Positions 13,502 to 62,056 of a stretch of DNA of 64,000 nucleotides are shown in pieces. The stretch comes from Ginglymostoma cirratum (taxonomy: Eukaryota): assembly GCA_024137785.1 (NCBI GenBank), contig JAHRHZ010000108.1, positions 4,815,505 through 4,879,504 of the forward strand. Direction: 5' to 3'. The notes beneath the pieces were generated by a model. That model did no database searches. It worked only from the letters and a program-made list of their open reading frames with translations, and was not told the origin of the DNA. The position numbers and the translations under genes were made by a program. Positions within the stretch are counted from its first letter, which is position 1. Every line of letters starts with the position of its first letter.

Positions 13502-14418
13502 CTATTTCAAACGATTGAATATTTTAACGAAGAGATTCATTGGATATTTTATCCCCTTTTTTAACTCAACTCTGAATGTAGCCTGGGTCCCTGCATAAAT
13601 AAACGGGTTAATGCAGGAACTCAATAACTGAAGCATAAATCCCGTTTCTTGGAGAATAAATATGGAATTAGTAAAATCAGAAGAAGAAGGATAAGTAAGG
13701 TTTGCAATTCGCACATAGGAAATCGTTAGAAAGTATAACAAATATAATAGGATGAAATTACCCGAGACAGTGAAAAGTAAAATGGTGGACTTTCTCCTCT
13801 TTTCTACCGCTGGGTCATTCTGATTCTCTCCAATGCTCTGCGCCCGCAACTTCCTGCGGGTTCTATTAGATGCCAGAATATGTCTGACGGTCAGTGCATT
13901 GAGCAGCAATATCAGAACAAAAGGGAGACAAGGTGTTAAAATAATTCGAATCCAGTCATATGCAGCCCATGCAGGTAATGTATAAACAATGGCCTTTATA
14001 CCGCAAAACCAGGGTATATTGTCAATTACATAGATAGGTTCATAGGCAAAATATGAGACAATGTTTTTGAGACAGCTCATTACAGACACGATTCCTATGA
14101 TACGCGCAGCCACTTTCTTGGTGCAATATTTAATTTTCAGTTTATTGCAAGAAATTGCAACAAATCGATCAAAAGTGAAAACAACCGTCAACCAGGCAGA
14201 ACTATCAAGGGCAGCATAATTTAAGGCAGCACGAATGCTGCATATTGGTGTGATAAACAAGAGACTAAATGGGAAATAAATTCCAGCAACACGGTTTAGT
14301 ATAACAGACGTGAGCATCACCAGGAGATCAGTCACAGCCATGGACACCAAGTAATACGTTATACATTGAGATAGACCACATCTTCGTCGAGACAGGATAA
14401 TGATCACTGCCCAGTTAG
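13502..14418 (-). CDS. Class A orphan GPCR (GPR139-like family), exon 2 of 2
   Basis: Open frame with TM2 MAVTDLL, TM3 FTFDRFVAI, TM5 TPCLPF..ILLLN.LTVRHI and TM7 SSCINPFIY. A polypyrimidine tract and AG acceptor lie at 14419-14420, and the phase matches exon 1. Confidence 0.92.
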
Positions 14419-14659
14419 CTTCCAGAAACAGAAAGAGAAAGTGTGTAAGGACATACATTCTTTAAGAAGCGGTGATTGTTTAGTCGCATTGTAACTGGAT
14501 AAGTAATCAAGACAATGTGGTAGTATTGTTGGTTCCTAAATTCTAATTATGCCAATCACTTTTTTACAATGGAACTAAATGTCTAATGATTATCATTGAA
14601 TGATAGTCAGAAAATCCCATCTGATTCCCTAACATTCTTCATGGAACGAATACTGCCAT

Positions 14660-24669: not shown

Positions 24670-25904
24670 AATTCGATGATTTCAAAGTCTTGGATTAGTG
24701 CCTGGGAGTATGACGTTATTGCGATCACAGAGACTTGGTGGAAGGAAGGGGATGATTGGCAACTAAATGTCCCAGGATATAAGTATACTGCAGGGTGTTT
24801 CTAGCTAGGTGGATAAAGAACTGGTTGAGCAACAGGAGACAGAGAGTAGTAGTTGAAGGGAGTTTCTAGAAATGGAGAAAGGTGACCAGTAGTGTTCCAC
24901 AGGGATCAGTGCTGGGGCCACTGTTGTTTGTGATATACATAAATGATCTGGAAGAGGGCATAAGTGATCTGATCAGTAAGTTTGCAGATGACACGAAGAT
25001 TGGGGGAGTAGCAGAAAGCATAGGGGATTGTCAAAGAATACAGGAGAATATAGATAGACTGGAGAGTTGGGCGGAGAAGTGGCAGATGGAGTTCAATCCG
25101 GGCAAGTGTGAGGTGATGCATTTTGGGAGGTCTAATTCTAGAGCGAACTATACTGTAAACGGAAGAGCCTTGGGAAAAGTTGATGAGCAGAGAGATCTGG
25201 GAGTTCAGGTCCATTGTACCCTGAAGGTGGCTGCACAGGTGGATAGAGTGGTCAAGAAGGCATATGGTACGCTTGCCTTCATCGGACGGGGTATTGAGTA
25301 TAAGAGCTGGCAGGTCATGTTAAAATTGTACAAGACTTTGGTTCGGCCGCAGTTAGAATACTGTGTGCATTTCTAGTCGCCATATTACCAAAAGGATGTG
25401 GAAGCTTTGGAGAGGGTACAGAGAAGGTTTATGAGGATGTTGCCTGGTAAGGAAGGTGCTAGCTATGAAGAGAGGTTGAGTAGGTTAGGATTGTTTTCAT
25501 TAAAAAAAAGGAGTTTGAGGGGGGACCTGATTGAGGTCTTCAAAATCATGAAGGGTATAGACAGGGTTGATAGAGATAAGCTTTTTCCCAGGGTGAGGGA
25601 TTCAATAACGAGTGGTCACGCGTTCAAGGTGAGAGGAGAAAAGTTTAAGGGGATACACGCGGGAAGTACTTTACACAGAGGGTGGTAGGTGCCTGGAACG
25701 CGTTGCCAGCAGAGGTAGTAGAGGCAGGCACGGTAGATTCATTTAAGGTGCGTCTGGACAGATGCATGAGTAGGTGGGGAGCAGAGGGATACAGATTCTT
25801 AGGAATTGGGCGATAGGTTTAGACAGTGGATTTGGATCGGCACAGGCTTGGAGGGCCGAAGGACCTGTTCCTGGGCTGTAAGTTTTCTTTGTTCTTTGTT
25901 CTTT
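24670..25904 (+). mobile_element. CR1 LINE, internally deleted (EN fragment joined to RT C-terminal half and 3' tail)
   Basis: YDVIAITETW...DWQLNVPGY (APE), then VPQGSVLGPLLFVIYINDL...SKFADDTKIGG (ORF 24882-25376). Ends in a (TTCTTTG)n tail. Confidence 0.92.
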
Positions 25905-51830: not shown

Positions 51831-52444
51831 TCAGCTATGACCTCCAGATGGTAGATGGGCAGATAAATCCAATCCAGAGTGAACCTCCTGTCCATGTCGA
51901 ATAGTGAACAAATTATAACAATTACTAACAAACTGAACAATTCCCTCTTTACTAATAACTATTCCTGAACTTAATTAAATTCTGCTGTAATGCTGTTTCA
52001 ATAAACACAAATCCCACTTGTACAAACCCAAGTAGTAAGAAATTAAATAGTCTGTCAAAGTCTACGTGCCTTTCTTCTGCTGTTCTCAAGTCATCAACTC
52101 CTTCCTTCCGCTGATCCGGCTGTCAGGGATGTTTTCTCTGCGAAGTCTCCTGTGAGGACTCTCAGCGAGAATTGTCGATGTATCTTTTGTGGATAGATGC
52201 TGCTTTCTTAGAGAGCTTAACGATTTCAAGTGAGTGCTGGATTCATTTTTTTTAGACGGCGGTACGCTCTCACGCCAATTTTCAAAAACCCACTCTTTAT
52301 ATTCCTTGGATGACATTTCAATTTTATTCTCATGATATTGGTCTGAGGTTGTCAAAATCATCGGATTTAAATTTAATTGGCTTTCAATTGCTAGGTGCTT
52401 GGTTTAAATTGATTGGCTGATTCTAGCTACTTGACAAATATCAA

Positions 52445-53205
52445 AATATGCACATGGACACCGAGATCTCTCTGCTCATCCACACTACCAAGAATCTTAC
52501 CATTAGCCCAGTACTCTGTTTTCCGGTTACGCCTTCCAAAGTGAATCAGCTCACATTTTGCCGCATTAGACTCCATTTGCCACCTCTCAGCCCAGCACTG
52601 AAGCTTATCTTTGTCCCTCTGTAACTTGCAACATCCTTCCGCACTATCCACAACTCCACCGACTTTAGTGTCATCCTCAAATTTACTAACACATCCTTCT
52701 ATGCCCTCATCCAGGTCATTTATAAAAATGACAAACAGCAGTGGCCCCAAAACAGATCCTTGCAGTACACCACTAGTAACTGAACTCCAGAATGAACATT
52801 TCCCATCAACCACCACCCTCTGTCTTCTTACAGCTAGCCAATTTCTGATCCAAACCACTACATCACCCTCAATCCCATGCCTACCGTGGGGAACCTTATC
52901 AAACGCTTTACTGAAATCCATATACACCACATCAACCGCTTTACTCTCATCCACCAGTTTGGTCACCTTCTCAAAGAATTCAATAAGGTTTGTGAGGCAC
53001 GACCGTCCATAAAACCGCGTTGACTATCCCTAATCAAAATATCCTTTCTTGATGATTATACATCCTATCTCTTATAATCCTTTCCAACACTTTACCCACA
53101 ACCGAAGTAAGGCTCACTGGTCTATAATTACCAGGGTTGTCTCTACTCCCCTTCTTGAACAAGGGGACAGTATTTGCTATCCTCCAGTCTTCTGGCACTA
53201 TCTGA
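52445..53205 (-). mobile_element. CR1 LINE RT fragment
   Basis: ORF 52427-52966 reads VDVVYMDFSKAFDKVPH...SGVLQGSVLGPLLFVIFINDL...SKFEDDTK. Confidence 0.92.
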
Positions 53206-53879
53206 ATTTGGTCAGATTGTAATTATTCTCCTCTTAGGGGACTGGACGTAGTGGAGCAATTTTTCACATTGCCAGGTAAAAATTAGAATTAGAGCTGGAA
53301 TGAAACATCTTCCCGAAGACCATGGATTGTTGTGCAGCACATGTCTTCAGTTCTATTGCAGGAATGATGCCAGGGCCTATTGACTTTGTAGTATCTATTG
53401 TATTCAGTTGTTTCTTGATGCCATGTACAGAGAATCAAATAGGTTGAAGACAGACATCTCCGATTTTGTGGACATCATAACGAGGGTGATGTGGATTATT
53501 GAATCAACGCTACTGGCTGAGGATGGTGCAGATAATGCATCCTTGTCTTCTGCTGTGATGCAAAAGTTGTTCCATTATTTAGGATGCGAACATTTTTGGA
53601 GCCCTGTCCTCCAGTGCGTTGTTTTATACTCCATCACCACTTATGACTGGATGCGACAGGACTGCAGACCTTATATCTGAACTGTTGGCCTTGGGATCGT
53701 TTTGCCTTCAGTATCAGATACGAGACCTGCTGCTTAGAATGCAAGCAGTCGTGTGGTAGCCTTATGCTTTGTCATTATCTTGGCATGTCTATCTGTACTT
53801 GTCATGGAACCATAGATCGGCTTGATGGTGATGGTACAATGAGCGATTATCCCGGGCAAAAGTTACAGATGGTGGTTCG

Positions 53880-54338
53880 CTGTGTTTGACAGTCCCTGGC
53901 TCGCTCTGCGTGCATGTGTCTTCCTCTCACTCTGTATACCTGTCCTTCACTCTCTGTCTGCGCGTCTGTACATCTCTCGCTCTGTGTTTGCGCCCCTTGC
54001 TCACTCTGTGCACGTCCCAAGCTCGTTCTTTGTCGCTGTGTCTCGTTCACTCTATGCACTTGTCCCTCACTCACTCTGCGCGCCTCTCCTTTACACTATT
54101 CTCTCTGTCTCTTCGTGGCTTTCTCTGCATGTCTATCCCTTGCTCTCGCTGTTTGTTACTGCCCCTCATTCTCGCTCTGTGCGCCTGTCCTTCACTCTTG
54201 CTGTGGGAGCCTATCCCTCACTCGCTCCGTTTGTGTGTGAGTCTCTTGCTCGCTCTCTGTGTCTGTCCTTCGGTCACTCTGTGTGGCTGATCCTTGTTTT
54301 CTCTCCATGTGCTCGTCACTTAGTTCTTGGTTCATGTG
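53880..54338. repeat. CT/GT-rich low-complexity degenerate repeat (left flank of provirus)
   Basis: Recurring ctcactctcgctctgtg / cctgtccctcact units that continue after the 3' LTR. Confidence 0.8.
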
Positions 54339-54699
54339 TGAAAGAGTAAGTAAAGAGTTAACAGCACAACATCTCTGATAAGGAAGTGGACATTTCGACC
54401 GAACCTGGGGAGGAAACGCCCGCTGAAACAGCAAGATTCTGCGCGCAAAATACAACAGCAGCATTAACCTTCACCCGCTTTGTGAGACGCTGAGAACAGA
54501 TTAAAGAATTGTGGACATGACTTGGGGGGAGGGTGGCGAGTAACAGCAAATGTATATAAGCTTTGAAATCGTCTGTAATAGCTGAGAAGTTTGGTGAGGC
54601 CCCTTTGAGGTCCCTGCTTCTCCCAAAATCTTTTGCCAATAAAGCTGCGTCTAACTCACTCACCACAGAATTATACTTGGTAATATTTCACCTACAACA
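54339..54699 (+). repeat. ERV 5' LTR (361 bp)
   Basis: TG...CA ends, TATATAA at 54553-54559, AATAAA at 54638-54643. Homologous to 61708-62056. Confidence 0.92.
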
Positions 54700-54702
54700 A
54701 AT

Positions 54703-54720
54703 TGGCATAGCCGTCAGGAT
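54703..54720 (+). promoter_or_regulatory. Primer binding site, tRNA-Ser
   Basis: TGGCATAGCCGTCAGGAT is 15/18 identical to TGGCGTAGTCGGCAGGAT, the complement of the tRNA-Ser 3' end. It lies 3 nt after the LTR. Confidence 0.8.
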
Positions 54721-55212: not shown

Positions 55213-56533
55213 ATGGCGGGGAAAGACGATCAATGGGGACCCCCAGGGTCTCTAATTAGTCAATATATGACGGATAGACATTCACTCATTAAACAGATGG
55301 AAAAGGGAGAATGGGATCCGTCCCAGGCCGTAGAACAACAGCGAGATTGGCTCTTAGGACGGAAGAAAGTTAAGACTGAGAAAACCGCAGTCCTTTTAGT
55401 ACATCAATTGGCCTGCCTTATAGGGCAAATATTAGAGTCCAAGAGGAGGTGGACGGAGGAAAAAAATGATGCTAGAATCACGAATTGGGGAACTCGAAAA
55501 AAGGAACCAGTTCTTAGCAGAGGGTCAGTGGGGACCTCTGCCCCCATACCATCCCAGGAAAGGGCCCACTGCCCCAGAGGAGAGTCTGAGTGAGGAAGTT
55601 AACCTCGCCCCGGTAACCCCGGGCGGGACCCTGGCAGTCCGAACCGCTAGGCATCAGCCCTTCACACCAGGAGAAAGACAACAGATATTGGCTTCCCTGG
55701 GAAGGTTACAAACTAGAGCTCAAATGCTAAATTCTGGGCCGAATTAGACACTATTTGGGTGGGGCACCAATGACACTTAAGAGATATGCACCAACTTGTC
55801 CGAGCGGCTTGCCCGCAAGATAAATGGCGGTTAATGGGGGACAATTCTGGTCAGGCTGACGCCGCAGCCCAAGCGAAACACGATTACTGAGGCGGACGGT
55901 GGACTCATTCTGTAGAGCTAACAGCCCAGAGAGAGGCACAAGAAGAACCCTTTAACCGCTTTAAAGCCAAAGTCCAACGGGTCCTGGGAAATGCCCCCAC
56001 CAATTGGCCCAAAATCACAAACACAAAACAACAGAAGGGAGAAGGGGCATCTGAATACGGGGAACGATTGTTCAAGGTATATCAAGAATGTTCAGGGATG
56101 CCAGATACAGACAGTACTGATAGAGCATTTATACAGGCATTCAAAGATGGGTTCTCACCCGCTCACCAGGCAATGCTGAAGATGGGGGTAATTGCCACCA
56201 GAGATTATGACGAGTTGGTGGGATGGGCATCTGGAATTAAGGAAGGAATGGGAGAAAGACCCCCGCCCTCATTCGAATAAAACAAGAAAACTTAGGTGCC
56301 GTGACAAAGATAAAACCAAAATCTACTTGCCAAAACTGCGGCAAGACGGGCACTTTGCCAGGGAATGCAGAGCCCTAAAACAGAACAAAGAGAGGTCTGG
56401 ACGCACTTGCCAACATTGCAGCAAGAACGGTCACTCTGAGGACACCTGTTGGGAAAAACATGGTAAACCAACAACTGCAACTTCTGAAAAGGGAGACGGA
56501 CTGATGTCGGGCAGCCCCCACGGGCACGGGTAA
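55213..56533 (+). pseudogene. gag: ERV gag (frameshifted)
   Basis: Starts MAGKDDQW. MHR-like QQKGEGASEYGERLF. Two CCHC knuckles: CQNCGKTG/HFAREC (1-nt frameshift) and CQHCSKNGHSEDTC. Confidence 0.8.
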
Positions 56534-56539
56534 TAAGGA

Positions 56540-59500
56540 AAGTAGGATTTACGTGTCTGCACTAGTAGGGGGCAGACAATGTGAGATTCTGGTGAACACG
56601 GGAGCCTCCATATCCATCACTGACTTACCCCTGCCCACTACTAACTAAATGATCTATGTAAAGGGCATCAGCAGGCAAAAAAAAACCTCTGCATACTTGA
56701 GTGAAACCATTTTGGTGGAAATTAATAACTTTTATATACCAATGCGATTTTATTTGTGTAGAAATAACGAAGGAACTATCATAGGAAACGATTTGATGAA
56801 AGAGTATGAGGTACTAATAGATTGAGGGAAAGGCGAATTAATTTGGCCCCGTCCCGATGGGAGAAAGGAGAAAATGGGAGCCTATGCAAGCCGTTTGGAA
56901 ATTGTCCAAGCCGCATCTGCCACTGGACGTGATTGGCAATTGGAGGACAATGGGTTTGGTGCCATTTGCACCTCCGCCCCAAGGGTATGGGCAGAAACCA
57001 AACTAGATACCGGGCTAATTAAAATCGACCCCATAGCAGTAGGAGGCCCGGAACATAAACCACACCGACAGTACCCCATCAAACCGGAGGCAAGGAGGGC
57101 AGTTGTGGAAATTGTTGAAGGACTAGTGGAGAGGGGAATTCTCCAGGAAACCACGAGTACCACCAACTCCCCCACCTGGCCAGTGAGTAAACCTGATGGG
57201 AGCTACTGACTCACAATTGATTACACAGCCCTAAATAACGTCACACTGAATTTGCACCCCATCGTGGCCAGCCCTTCCACAATCTTGAATGGGCTGTCCC
57301 CGGCCCACAAAATCTTTACTGTACTGGACATTCTGGTCTATCCCACTCCATCGTGGCTCCCAAGATAAGTTCGCATTTACCGTCGGGGATAAGCAGTACA
57401 CGTGGACTCGACTACCCCAGGGATTCCATAACAGCCCGGCCATCTTTCACCGGGCCATGAGCGAAACACTCAGGGAAATCGAACTGCCCCACGGCAGCAC
57501 GATATTCCAATATGTAGATGACATCTTCCTGGCCTCAGAGTCCAAACTTGTCCACCAAGAGGCACGATACTTAGTCCTGAAACACTTGGAGGACAAGGTG
57601 TTAAAGCAAGGCCGAAGAAAGCCCAAATAGGGAAAACTCAGGTCCTGTACCTGGGACATCTGATCTCCCAAGGCACAAAAGAAATGCCTGTAGACAGGAA
57701 AACCGCCATACAACAAATGCCACGACCGTGGCAGTCGGTGGTCTGACGAAAATTTTGGGCTTGTTTAATTACTGCAGAAATTTTATCCCTGAGTATGCAA
57801 AATTGGTAGAACCAATACAGCAACTGGTAAAAAGGGAGAAACCAGCCACGGATCCCATGGATTGGGGGCCTGAACAAGATGAAGCTTATACAAAACTAAA
57901 AGCAGAATTAATGTCAGCCCCAGGACTGGGACTACCTGACGCGAGTGAAGACTTCTACATTTATTGTAATAATGAGGGAGGATTCTACTCATCGGTGGTG
58001 ACCCAGATCCATGGAGACAAACAACGACGCACAGGATACTACTCGACCGCGGAAGGACCCGTGGTGAACGGTTTACCCAGGTGTATCGCCGCCGTAGACT
58101 GTGCTGCATGGGCTGTGAGGATTAGTGAGCCAATAGTAATGACAGGGAATATTATTTTACGTACCAAACACACTTTGGTAGAAATGTTAAATACAGGGAA
58201 ATTGTGGTCCGTCTCCATCATGAGAAGGGCAAAGCGGAAAGCGGTCCTTCTACCTCCTACCAAACCTGTAATCATTTTGTGGGACTCTCGGGAGAACACA
58301 GCAGAACGCATATTAGGAGATGGTGAGCCACACGAATATGGGAATGTAGACGATGAGGTAGAAGAAAGTAGGATAAAAGATGTGCCCCTGGAGGCACCAG
58401 ACGAAATCCTGTTTGTGGACGGTTCTCAGAAATATGTACATGGGTCGCCACCAACAGGATGGGCGGTAGTTAACGCAGACCTACTAGTAGTACTAGCGGG
58501 AAAGGTAGAAGGAGTCCTATCGGCCCAGGTGGCAGAGCTAGTTGCCCTGTCCCAGGCCTTCATGGAGGAGGCAGGAAAAAGGGTTAATATTTACACTGAC
58601 AGTAGATATGCATTTGGAATTGTGCATGATTACATGACTGTTTGGGGAAGCAGGGGATTTGTTACCACAAAAGGCACCCCAATCAAACATTGACAAATAA
58701 AAGAGACCTTACTGGAGGCCAGCGAGCTCCCATCGGAAGCTGCAGTGCTGAGGGTCAAGGCCCACCAGAGGGAGCCAGACAAACAAAATCCCGAGTGCCA
58801 CATTTTTAAGGGGAACCAGGCTGCTGATAAAGCAGCTCAGTCAGCCCTGGAGACAGAGGGCATCCAACCCTTATCAGCCACATTTGCTGAGGATGGCCCC
58901 ACCATTAGTATTATCCAGCTACATGCAGACACACCTGAAGGAGAACGCGCTAGGTGGAAGGCACAAGGGGCCACACTGGACGGAAAGGGTGTCTGGAGAT
59001 TGAACGACAAGGTCATGGCCCCCGAGTGAATCCAACACACCCTCATGCAACTACACCATGGCGCGTCCCACGTGGGGTGAGATGCCATGATTACTAGCAT
59101 CAGGAAAGAATGGGGGTGGAAAGGCATGGGCAGGGACGTAGCACGATTCTGTCACCATTGCGTGACGTGTGCCCAGCACAACTCGGGCAGGCCCGTCAAG
59201 ATCAGAATGGGACACCAGCCACGCCAGAAGGGGCCCTGGGAATATATACAGATAGATTTTACGGGACCACTTCCCCAATCCCATGGAAAGACATATTGCC
59301 TGGTAATTATTGACCAATTTACCAGATGGGTAAAGGTGTATCTGACTCGGAATTGTTCAGCTAACACAGCAGCTAGGATCCTGGCTGAAGAAGTCATCTT
59401 CAGGTAGGGAGTGCCGCTCCAGATTGACTCTGATCAGGGGACCCATTTCACTGAAGGTTGGTTAAAAATCATATGCCAGCTGATGGGCATTAAACAGAAA

Positions 59501-60051
59501 TTCCACACACTCTACCATCCCCAAAGCTCGGGCATAGTGGAGCTTATGAACAGAACCCTTAAAACTTGCCTGGCGAAGGCTATGAAAGACTCTGGTAAAC
59601 AATGGACGGAGGTCCTACCTGCAATACTGATGAAACTAAGGACTACCACGAGCCGCACAATCGGATTAACCCCATACAAATTGATGGCCGGCAGAACAAT
59701 GCAACTGCCCATGTCTGTCATAACGGGGTTTCCGATGTCGGCCCACTCCGAGATAGAATATGACACTATGTGCTAGAACTAAGCGCCCAGTTGAAGGCAT
59801 TGCGCAGAACAGTGAGGGACAATCAGGAAGGACAAGATGAACAAAGGGAATTAGAGGATTGCCCCGAAGTCCCATCTGCAGGTAGCAAGGTTATGGTAAA
59901 GACCCTACGCGGGAAACCTGGGTTCACTGCCAAATGGAATGGCCCGTATGAAGTTATCATCAGTGGAGACACTTGTGCTTGCATAGATATGCGAGGGAAG
60001 GGCGTCTGGAAACATGGGTCCCAACTTAAAGAATATGCAGACGCCAATTGA
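56540..60051 (+). pseudogene. pol: ERV pro-pol (PR, RT, tether, RNase H, IN), disrupted
   Basis: PR LVNTGAS (D to N). RT QYPIKPEA, NSPTWPVSKPDGSY, WTRLPQGFHNSP, QYVDD. RNase H FVDGS, SAQVAELVAL, NIYTDSRYAFG. IN IQIDF, IDSDQGTHF, PQSSGIVE.MNRTLK, WNGPYEV. Confidence 0.93.
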
Positions 60052-60206
60052 GATCCAAAATAATATGTTTTATTCACAGAACGACCCTCTGATAGACCTT
60101 CAAGCAAGCTGATCAGGAGCGCGGGAAGTCCCACGCGGGCAGTATAGCCTTTGGAACATTGTTAACATAGAGTGATAAGATACAGTTTCACCATTTGGAT
60201 TTAAAC

Positions 60207-61659
60207 ATGTCCAAGATGATATACGTGGTCGCGGTGTTCTGTATTGTCATGATTTCAGGGGTATCGGGATTAGAGGATAACTTGTTTTACAAGACCCACG
60301 TACATCTACACGGTAATCGGACTGTGTGTTACCCACTTGCCCAGTCAGTCGAGGTGTTGTTTATAGCCACCCCTGGATGGACCCCCTTTGACCTATATAT
60401 GACAGATACGTTAGAGGCACCCTGTGTGGGCCAAACTGGTACATACCGACGACGTAAACGAGGGAGATGTGTAGAGCTGATAAACTCAAGTAGGATACAG
60501 TCCCCCAATTCTACAGGAACTCGGGAAACGAACGGCACAACATGTTCGAACCCGTTAAATTACCCTCTTTGCTTCTCAGGGCAGGGATGGGGGTGCACAT
60601 ACGCTCTAGTCCCCAAGAACGCCTCCTGTGTTCAGACCCAGTGCTCCCGCCAACATTGCCAAGTGAACAAAGGCCTCTTTCAGTGCACTTGTTATGAGCA
60701 AATATGTCTGAACGTAGCTGCAGGTGGACAGTTTATTTGTGGACAGTGCAACGGGACACATGTTAGTTCAGCCACCTGGACGTATCCATTTGATACTTAC
60801 CAAATGGTGGGGTCAGGCGGAAACTCCAGACAGCCAAGGAACTGGTGGTACAAACAGTTCATGCAGAAAAATAATCAGGAGGTCAAATGCTATCGAGACA
60901 AGAAAGGCTTTGTGTTCCTCCTCCATGGGACCTTCACAACAGCCACACCAACCCTCCCAGTCCTCTTCACAGTGTGGACAATGGGACCGTTTACTGTCCC
61001 ATGCCCCCAGAGAGAACACACCCGTAGGAAGATAGTGACCCGAGCCATGAGCGAAAAATCTGTGCAGACTGGAAGGACCCGGTAACACTGGGGTCCTCAC
61101 TTGGCTACGGGTTACTCGGGGCCCTGTCTCTTGGGGGAGCAGCGGGAGTCATTAGTGCCAAGAATAGGAACTACCTCGTCTGTGGACTGACTATCCTGGG
61201 AAATAGCACGGCAAAGGGGTTGGATGCTATAAATCGAGAACTTTCCGAGTTAAGACTCTATGTGCAGCAGACCCGGTATGCCGTCGATTACCAGTTAGCC
61301 CAGCAGGGCGGAGCGTGCACGATAGTCGGGGACAAGTGTATAACACATTTTACGGATGAATCCTATAACGTCAACCAAGCCCTTAGTGACATAAGGAAGC
61401 AGCTTGATGGCATCAGGCAAGGACCCAAAAAAGGGGGCGGTTGACTCGAATGTTTCCGAGGTGGATCTTGGGGGACATACCGACTGCATGCTCTGATTAT
61501 ACTGATTATAATCTTTCTTGCTGTGTTGTTATGGCCGTCTTTAATCCGTGCTGTAAAATTTTAACTGCGAGAATTATGTCAGGTGCAAGTGCGCGCACCG
61601 ATAAGACTGTTGAGCGCCCCTTGATGGGTGACACGGAGACACTGAAAATATGGCTGTAA
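60207..61659 (+). pseudogene. env: ERV env (signal peptide, Cys-rich SU, TM), disrupted by about two frameshifts and one stop
   Basis: Signal peptide MSKMIYVVAVFCIVMISGVSG. TM heptad and ISD-like ELSELRLYVQQTRYAVDYQLAQQGGACTIVGDKC. Hydrophobic anchor ALIILIIIFL at ~61490. Confidence 0.88.
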
Positions 61660-61697
61660 GTGGTCTAGAGGCCATGAGTACTCATGACTCTGACCAC

Positions 61698-61706
61698 AAG
61701 GGGGAA
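61698..61706 (+). promoter_or_regulatory. Polypurine tract
   Basis: AAGGGGGAA immediately before the 3' LTR. Confidence 0.8.
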
Positions 61707-61707
61707 C

Positions 61708-62056
61708 TAAAGAAGTAAGTGAAGAGGTAACAACACAACAAATCTGTTAAGGAAGTGAACTTTTAGACCGAACCTGGGGAGGACACATCTGCTGAAACAG
61801 CAAGATCCTGCGCGCGAAAAACAACAGCAGCACTAACCTTCACCTGCTTTGTGAGACGCCTGGATCAGATTAAAGAACTGTGAACATGACCTGGGGGAGG
61901 GTGGCGAGTAGCAGCAAATGTATATAAGCTTTGAAATCGTCTGTAATAGCTGAGAAGTTTGGTGTGGTCCCTGCTTCTCCCAAAATCTTTTGTGAATAAA
62001 CCTGTGTCTGACTCACTCACCACAGAATTATACTTGGTAATATTTTACCTAAAACA
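61708..62056 (+). repeat. ERV 3' LTR (349 bp)
   Basis: Colinear with the 5' LTR apart from an ~11-bp deletion. AATAAA at 61995-62000; ends ...AAAACA. Confidence 0.92.

Follow-up and report, generated by a model that had tools for sequence, protein, structure and literature searches.

The question raised by this locus is whether a retrovirus of sharks carried an envelope (Env) whose transmembrane subunit (TM) held an internal fusion loop between two cysteines, as in Ebola virus GP2 and the avian leukosis TM, and how such an envelope relates to the filovirus glycoprotein. The focal copy is a decayed 7.7-kb class I provirus on the + strand of a 64,000-nt window of Ginglymostoma cirratum, the window being the whole stretch of DNA analysed. 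All parts of the provirus lie on +. The 5′ LTR (TG...CA, 54339..54699) and the 3′ LTR (61708..62056) are direct repeats of each other, with 37 differences in 349 aligned bases (K2P 0.115), and the 5-bp flanks match at four of five positions. Dating by the LTR pair was dropped, since the 3′ LTR is nearer to other loci (88-90%) than to its own partner (87%), a mismatch that suggests recombination or conversion. A PBS-like element with a TGG start (54703..54720) is located 3 nt past the 5′ LTR, and a polypurine tract (61698..61707) precedes the 3′ LTR. Gag is spread over several frames with decayed zinc knuckles (55213..56533; zf-CCHC weak, E 0.016). The pro-pol region (56500..60051) comprises a protease-like motif, reverse transcriptase (RT), RNase H and integrase, interrupted by many stops and frame changes. 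Pfam matches include RVT_1 (4.5e-20), RNase_H (4.5e-12), Integrase_H2C2 and rve. The top PDB matches of the RT/RNase H frame are p80 RT chains (E 1.7e-37; foamy 2e-8), which by their name we take to be MLV/XMRV. From these matches the provirus is read as class I, its predicted RT/RNase H being nearest to gamma/epsilon retroviruses.

The env region begins with a signal peptide and a Cys-rich surface subunit (SU) with 16 Cys and six sequons (60207..61043). Its frame extends over 60171-61085 and has an ATG at 60207; position 60195, also in this frame, is a TTG. The putative SU/TM cleavage region, R-R-K-I-V-T-R (61023..61043), has Arg at P6 and P1. The TM frame (+, 61028-61444) holds the peptide quoted in the preliminary description and overlaps the SU frame, reading switching between about 61040 and 61061, where the focal copy carries a frameshift (61040..61061). 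Cysteine codons at 61061 and 61181 bound the candidate fusion loop (61061..61183), a Gly-rich hydrophobic segment of 39 aa with seven Gly; both coordinates of the preliminary description were right. HR1 with an N-x-T sequon (61202) and an ISD-like segment follows (61184..61315), a region that matches PF22307 and aligns with GP2 in hhalign. A CX6C motif succeeded by Ile, without a third Cys (61316..61342, Cys codons 61316/61337), leads into HR2 (61343..61444), at the end of which a premature in-frame stop (61442-61444) precedes the anchor. The membrane anchor and tail (61484..61660), recognized from sibling loci, lie past this stop and contain another frame change. The env of the focal copy is thus broken in at least three places (frameshift, stop, second frame change), and because of these lesions the locus is an inert fossil that makes no Env.

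The relation of the SU and TM frames was read from sibling loci. Searched with the TM frame, the genome (4.36 Gb) yielded 346 candidates and, from these, 150 scored matches, figures that are not copy numbers. The family set of 39 sibling loci consists of the best 29 after the focal copy plus ten lower-ranked ones, with long open frames as the main reason for choosing the latter. The SU end and TM run in one natural frame in 35 of the 39, which bears out the earlier proposal that the SU frame at 60195 and the hidden TM frame were once joined. Of the 39 siblings, 36 retain the opening Cys, the other three lying outside the alignment coverage, and 38 the closing Cys; where both are present, the loop measures 39 aa in 31 of 35 loci. 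Public homologs that reach the TM have both Cys and a 39-aa loop in 10 of 13 cases, the remaining three being truncated or altered there. Homologs are labelled Rhincodon (whale shark), Heterodontus (horn shark) and Pristiophorus (sawshark), and the focal SU is 85% identical over 284 aa to a whale-shark protein (P0012), so the description of the element as a shark ERV holds. This conservation in siblings and public homologs means that the Cys pair is real and family-wide, not a product of chance. Two possibly-RNA runs contained related copies, mostly 90-95% alike, none of them the focal locus. Relatives of env or RT and a reptarenavirus GP2 were not found among the viral contigs searched.

The position of the pair was compared with other TMs. 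Filovirus and ASLV loci carry labels given by the nearest named proteins for some and presumed for the rest. The closing Cys lies 45 residues upstream of CX6C and seven before the sequon in the focal copy, in 10/10 filovirus and in 4/4 ASLV loci, and also occurs at -45 in 77 ALV-type proteins, whose loops span 32-35 aa. Loop lengths are 39 aa in the shark family, 44 in filoviruses and 35 in the ASLV loci. None of 22 gamma/delta TMs has a Cys anywhere in the 85 residues upstream of the motif, and a Cys at -45 is absent from all nine readable control envs of the same genome (one of ten controls was unmatched), giving 0/31 among loop-less controls. The family therefore departs from the ordinary N-terminal fusion peptide without a Cys clamp, and the likeness in loop register to filoviruses and ASLV that had been claimed is confirmed. 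In an alignment of the shark family, filoviruses and ASLV type, each of the three groups has a Trp after the opening Cys. The opening Cys is the seventh residue of the TM if the presumed cleavage is correct, and occupies positions 9-10 in ASLV and Ebola; in the hhalign alignment to ASLV it falls out of register. The loop sequences themselves are unalignable between groups. The best 15-residue Kyte-Doolittle mean of the loop is 1.77, compared with 0.63-1.33 in filoviruses and 1.44-1.62 in ASLV. Register and hydrophobicity are the strongest evidence that the segment works like an internal fusion loop. AlphaFold2 models of a full-length public homolog (8 rows, pLDDT 33.9) and of the TM ectodomain (20 rows, 38.1) were unusable. 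Foldseek returned no match at E<=0.001 for either; with a low-confidence model, Mengla virus GP ranked first in BFVD (E 1.4e-3, TM 0.10), a result not counted as evidence.

The cysteines that usually link the subunits are a separate matter. The residue after CX6C is Ile in 37 siblings, Met in one and a gap in one (n=39), and Ile or Val in 13/13 public homologs, never Cys. Same-genome controls keep the third Cys in eight of nine cases, the other having a stop. Near the SU N-terminus, six of ten controls have C-W-V/I-C, four of them after an N-x-S sequon; at the place of this CXXC the family has N-x-T-x-C-Y-P-L, with one Cys only, the two motifs being equated solely by their position after N-x-S/T. 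In envelopes with the usual link, the second Cys of CXXC is joined to the third of CX6CC, according to a preprint (bioRxiv 2023.10.07.561363). Since both of these residues are replaced in the family, both halves of the usual SU-TM covalent bond appear to have been lost together. An internal C-G-x-C is present in six of seven full family SUs. SU Cys counts in nine proteins are 17 in four, 16 in four and 15 in one, hence odd in five; they may leave room for another SU-TM bond, another partner for the opening Cys, or a free thiol. An invariant Cys stands at the SU end, 20 residues upstream of the opening Cys. At least three other env lineages of the same genome (L031-L040) are ordinary gamma-type, with SU CXXC, CX6CC and no clamp; two loci (L034 and L035) have a 7-residue insertion in HR1. 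The cleavage region, conserved in the family, is not a canonical furin site (R-X-K/R-R) and fits the general (K/R)-X4-R convertase motif, while variants reading R-I-V-T agree with the SKI-1/S1P motif R-X-aliphatic-Z, as these motifs are given in PMC8310232.

The shark TM is likely an internal-loop fusogen like Ebola GP2 and the avian leukosis TM, with a disulfide predicted between its two Cys. The observed basis comprises the setting in a provirus, a Cys pair kept in register across the family, the HR1-ISD-CX6C-HR2 homology to GP2 and the missing third Cys. The precursor would be cut at the basic R-x4-R site, some six residues before the first Cys. Upon triggering, HR1 would extend, inserting the loop in the target membrane, and HR2 would fold back to form a six-helix bundle. 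HR1 extension and HR2 fold-back are standard in class I fusion. SU and TM were probably held together without the usual covalent bond.

Similarity to filovirus GP2 was seen with several methods. The Pfam profile PF22307 (Ebola-like_HR1-HR2) matches with 28 bits at a cut-off of 27, and hhalign of the family to filovirus GP2 gives 98% (E 7.9e-14), starting about eight residues upstream of the closing Cys; neither the HMMER nor the hhalign match covers the loop or the opening Cys. In the PDB search, the first 37 of 56 rows are GP/GP2 chains, which we read as filovirus, with a best score of 51.5 bits. Another GP2 ectodomain, presumably that of CAS virus, follows at 33.4 bits, then syncytin-1 (30.7), ASLV TM (17) and MLV (13.5); ASLV chains match the family only from HR1 onward. 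The claimed likeness to filovirus GP2 is thereby upheld, with 51 bits for GP2 against 31 for syncytin-1. Two control envs have syncytin-1 first in PDB, with filovirus GP2 scoring nearly as high, in one of them at 53.9 bits vs 55.2 for syncytin-1. Identity past the closing Cys amounts to 32% between family and filoviruses, 33% between family and controls, 22% between family and ALV-type, and 32% between controls and filoviruses. As this downstream identity is no higher than with ordinary envs, the filovirus signal, as read from the alignments, comes chiefly from the clamp and the initial turns of HR1. The HR1 start K/H-N-x-N-x-L-x-C is common to the family and filoviruses and absent from ASLV. 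The Asn of the N-x-T sequon is kept in 36 of 39 siblings; its earlier use as a parallel to GP2 does not stand, because five of nine ordinary controls have the sequon in the same place. An HR1 glycan is described for many non-mammalian envs (PMC9967133).

No comparable signal came from the SU. Its C-terminal stretch aligned weakly with Ebola GP1 155-197 in hhalign (P 0.5%, E 0.12), HMM searches of SU against GP1 in both directions gave shuffle-level scores, and the profile alignment to GP1 reached z 1.5 (16 of 200 shuffles as high), compared with z 6.9 for the ALV SU. The SU-GP1 likeness, seen by eye and in hhalign, was thus not significant in the HMM and profile comparisons. In the Atlas, the SU is near the TLV_coat and Avian_gp85 clusters (0.92-0.93) and has no Filo_glycop row.

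Three trees were computed, with rows that exclude two loci (L011 and L036) and reptarenavirus, Tapajos virus, lizard, tarsier and skate sequences. Tree 1 (51 rows, 84 columns downstream of the closing Cys) places the family as sister to filoviruses (84/54), with a long-branch warning. For tree 2, 14 ALV-type rows were added and 13 near-duplicate rows dropped. It groups the family, filoviruses, ALV-type sequences and controls, in unsupported inner order, apart from mammalian gamma/delta TMs (99/100), the alpha-type clade (97/100) being separate from the family clade (100/96). Tree 3, with ten more residues, joins all loop-bearing groups with bootstrap 30 and needs one loop-state change. AU tests rejected none of the alternatives: all loop types together (p 0.376), family and controls (0.367 and 0.371), family and filoviruses (0.325), and family beside mammalian gamma/delta (0.168). 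The preliminary description had assigned the element to a filovirus/ASLV/reptarenavirus fusion lineage. Its retroviral and shark nature stands, while a single lineage is neither shown nor rejected by three trees in three arrangements and the AU tests.

For the origin of this envelope, descent shared with filoviruses is a serious candidate, to which we give somewhat less than an even chance: the family would be the retroviral sister of filovirus GP2, and loop and ectodomain would descend from an env captured by filoviruses. The join in tree 1, the shared HR1 start and the PDB ranking point this way, as does a published analysis that places cartilaginous-fish ectodomains beside four filovirus genera (PP 0.83; PMC11521997). 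However, the join is lost once more ALV-type rows enter, core identity to filoviruses equals that between ordinary shark envs and filoviruses, the third Cys is gone, and SU-GP1 similarity stays at shuffle level, in addition to the long-branch warning. Unlikely in our judgement is convergence, by which an ordinary gamma-type env lineage of fish gained the Cys pair on its own and the filovirus rank reflects a PDB without fish retrovirus envelopes. A clade of family and same-genome controls is not rejected, the controls too match filovirus GP2 strongly, and the loops cannot be aligned; but the exact -45 register is common to two other groups and absent from the 31 controls, and tree 3, albeit at bootstrap 30, requires a single change of loop state.

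The disulfide within the loop has its own rival. A bond that spans the cleavage site from the opening Cys to the last SU Cys, as a covalent SU-TM link replacing the lost third Cys, seems quite improbable. The invariant Cys at the SU end, the odd SU Cys counts and the absent third Cys would suit such a link, yet it leaves the invariant closing Cys without its known partner, and the opening Cys enters the TM at nearly the depth seen in ASLV and Ebola. A filovirus-derived endogenous element or an assembly artefact, suggested by the Ebola-like names of the top PDB and Pfam matches, has a negligible probability. It is refuted by the proviral context, with env placed between integrase and 3′ LTR, and is further opposed by the 150 scored genome matches, the homologs in three other shark genera and the lack of GP1 similarity. 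With a clamped internal loop as the preferred reading, a bolder proposal can be formulated, which we hold to be doubtful: filoviruses may have received their entire glycoprotein (clamped loop and, judging from three faint colinear motifs, GP1 core) from a retrovirus whose nearest known fossil relative is this family, the loop being an old jawed-vertebrate retroviral feature, not a bird one, and the covalent SU-TM link having been dropped afterwards.

Among known systems, the nearest by description were reported by Nino Barreat & Katzourakis 2024 (PMC11521997): ERVs of Chiloscyllium, Scyliorhinus, Amblyraja and Leucoraja whose filovirus-like ectodomains form the sister group of ebola-, cueva-, marburg- and dianloviruses, the Chiloscyllium rows matching the GPs of Marburg and Zaire at about 1e-11. 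They share with the family an Ebola-like HR1-HR2 that takes the place of env in an LTR element of cartilaginous fish and a filovirus GP as top match, the focal family having been matched against PDB and Pfam, not NCBI nr. In contrast, that study deals with the ectodomain only, and its main text contains none of the words 'cysteine', 'loop', 'disulfide' and 'GP2'. The family motifs were not found in the readable supplements of PMC11521997, whose loci may belong to this family or to ordinary shark envs. Filovirus GP2 (Ebola, Marburg, Lloviu) resembles the family in Cys register, the N-x-N-x-L-x-C HR1 start, sequon, ISD, CX6C and about 32% core identity. It differs in its 44-aa loop without detectable similarity to the 39-aa one, and the family lacks the third Cys, has an SU that is not detectably GP1-like, and a non-canonical cleavage site close to the first Cys.

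Avian gamma-type (ASLV) Env, including the bat CHIRalphaEnv, is described as having an internal fusion peptide and two flanking Cys near the cleavage site, no N-terminal SU CXXC and an HR1 sequon, all as in the family (PMC3758190, PMC13568524). Unlike it, the family has a class I pol, a loop of 39 vs 32-35 aa, 22% core identity to this type and a separate, well-supported clade. Because its motif is CX6C-Ile and never CX6CC, and it falls outside the alpha-type clade, the family is by sequence not a member of the avian gamma-type class. Nor is it an ordinary gamma-type Env, judging from the Cys clamp and the missing CXXC/CX6CC pairing. An ALV-type Env with a 35-aa Cys loop (P0103), labelled as from the tortoise Gopherus evgoodei, is another non-avian carrier. 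In anamniotes, ISD-bearing CXnC TMs form one of three gamma-type subtypes, many of them in cartilaginous fish, and three novel fusion peptides are reported (Chen et al., bioRxiv 2021.11.23.469661). These envs are like the family in the ISD-bearing TM and two-Cys motif, but the new TM N-termini are stated to be dissimilar to the avian type, and the accessible text of the preprint describes no Cys-flanked loop.

When the avian gamma-type was defined in 2013, the Cys-flanked peptide was unknown in retroviruses outside birds, an absence from which filoviruses were suggested to be of avian origin (PMC3758190); later work reports the peptide in bat alpha-type elements (PMC13568524). With the same clamp present in a widespread class I ERV family of sharks, the avian-origin argument falls away. 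In the literature searched, which included few subscription papers, a Cys-clamped loop in a shark ERV was not described; a survey of 40 chondrichthyan genomes mentions no loop in the sections available (PMC12813294). The link between shark retroviruses and the filovirus glycoprotein is itself already published in PMC11521997, as is the envelope exchange between virus families proposed in the preliminary description. Direct sisterhood to filoviruses, published in outline, is plausible, if short of probable. The fusion loop and the loss of the subunit-linking Cys appear to be the new details, the clamp giving the weakly supported connection between shark ERVs and filoviruses (PMC11521997) an architectural character as well. 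An internal loop with an ISD, without the CXXC/CX6CC bond defining gamma-type Env, is a new combination of parts and bears on how such envelopes are triggered.

Other features of the window are of minor interest. A pyrimidine-rich array of degenerate 26-bp units is present on both sides of the provirus (53830-54330 and 62060-64000). LINE-type RT fragments are located at 52427-53023 (-; RVT_1 2.3e-14) and, recognized by likeness, at 24870-25376 (+). The segment 49930-51300 is GC-rich and contains several open frames, 80-174 aa long, of which the longest has no Pfam match. A single open frame of 319 aa (13502-14461, -) matches the rhodopsin-family 7TM domain PF00001 (E 1.3e-22) and is read as a host GPCR exon.
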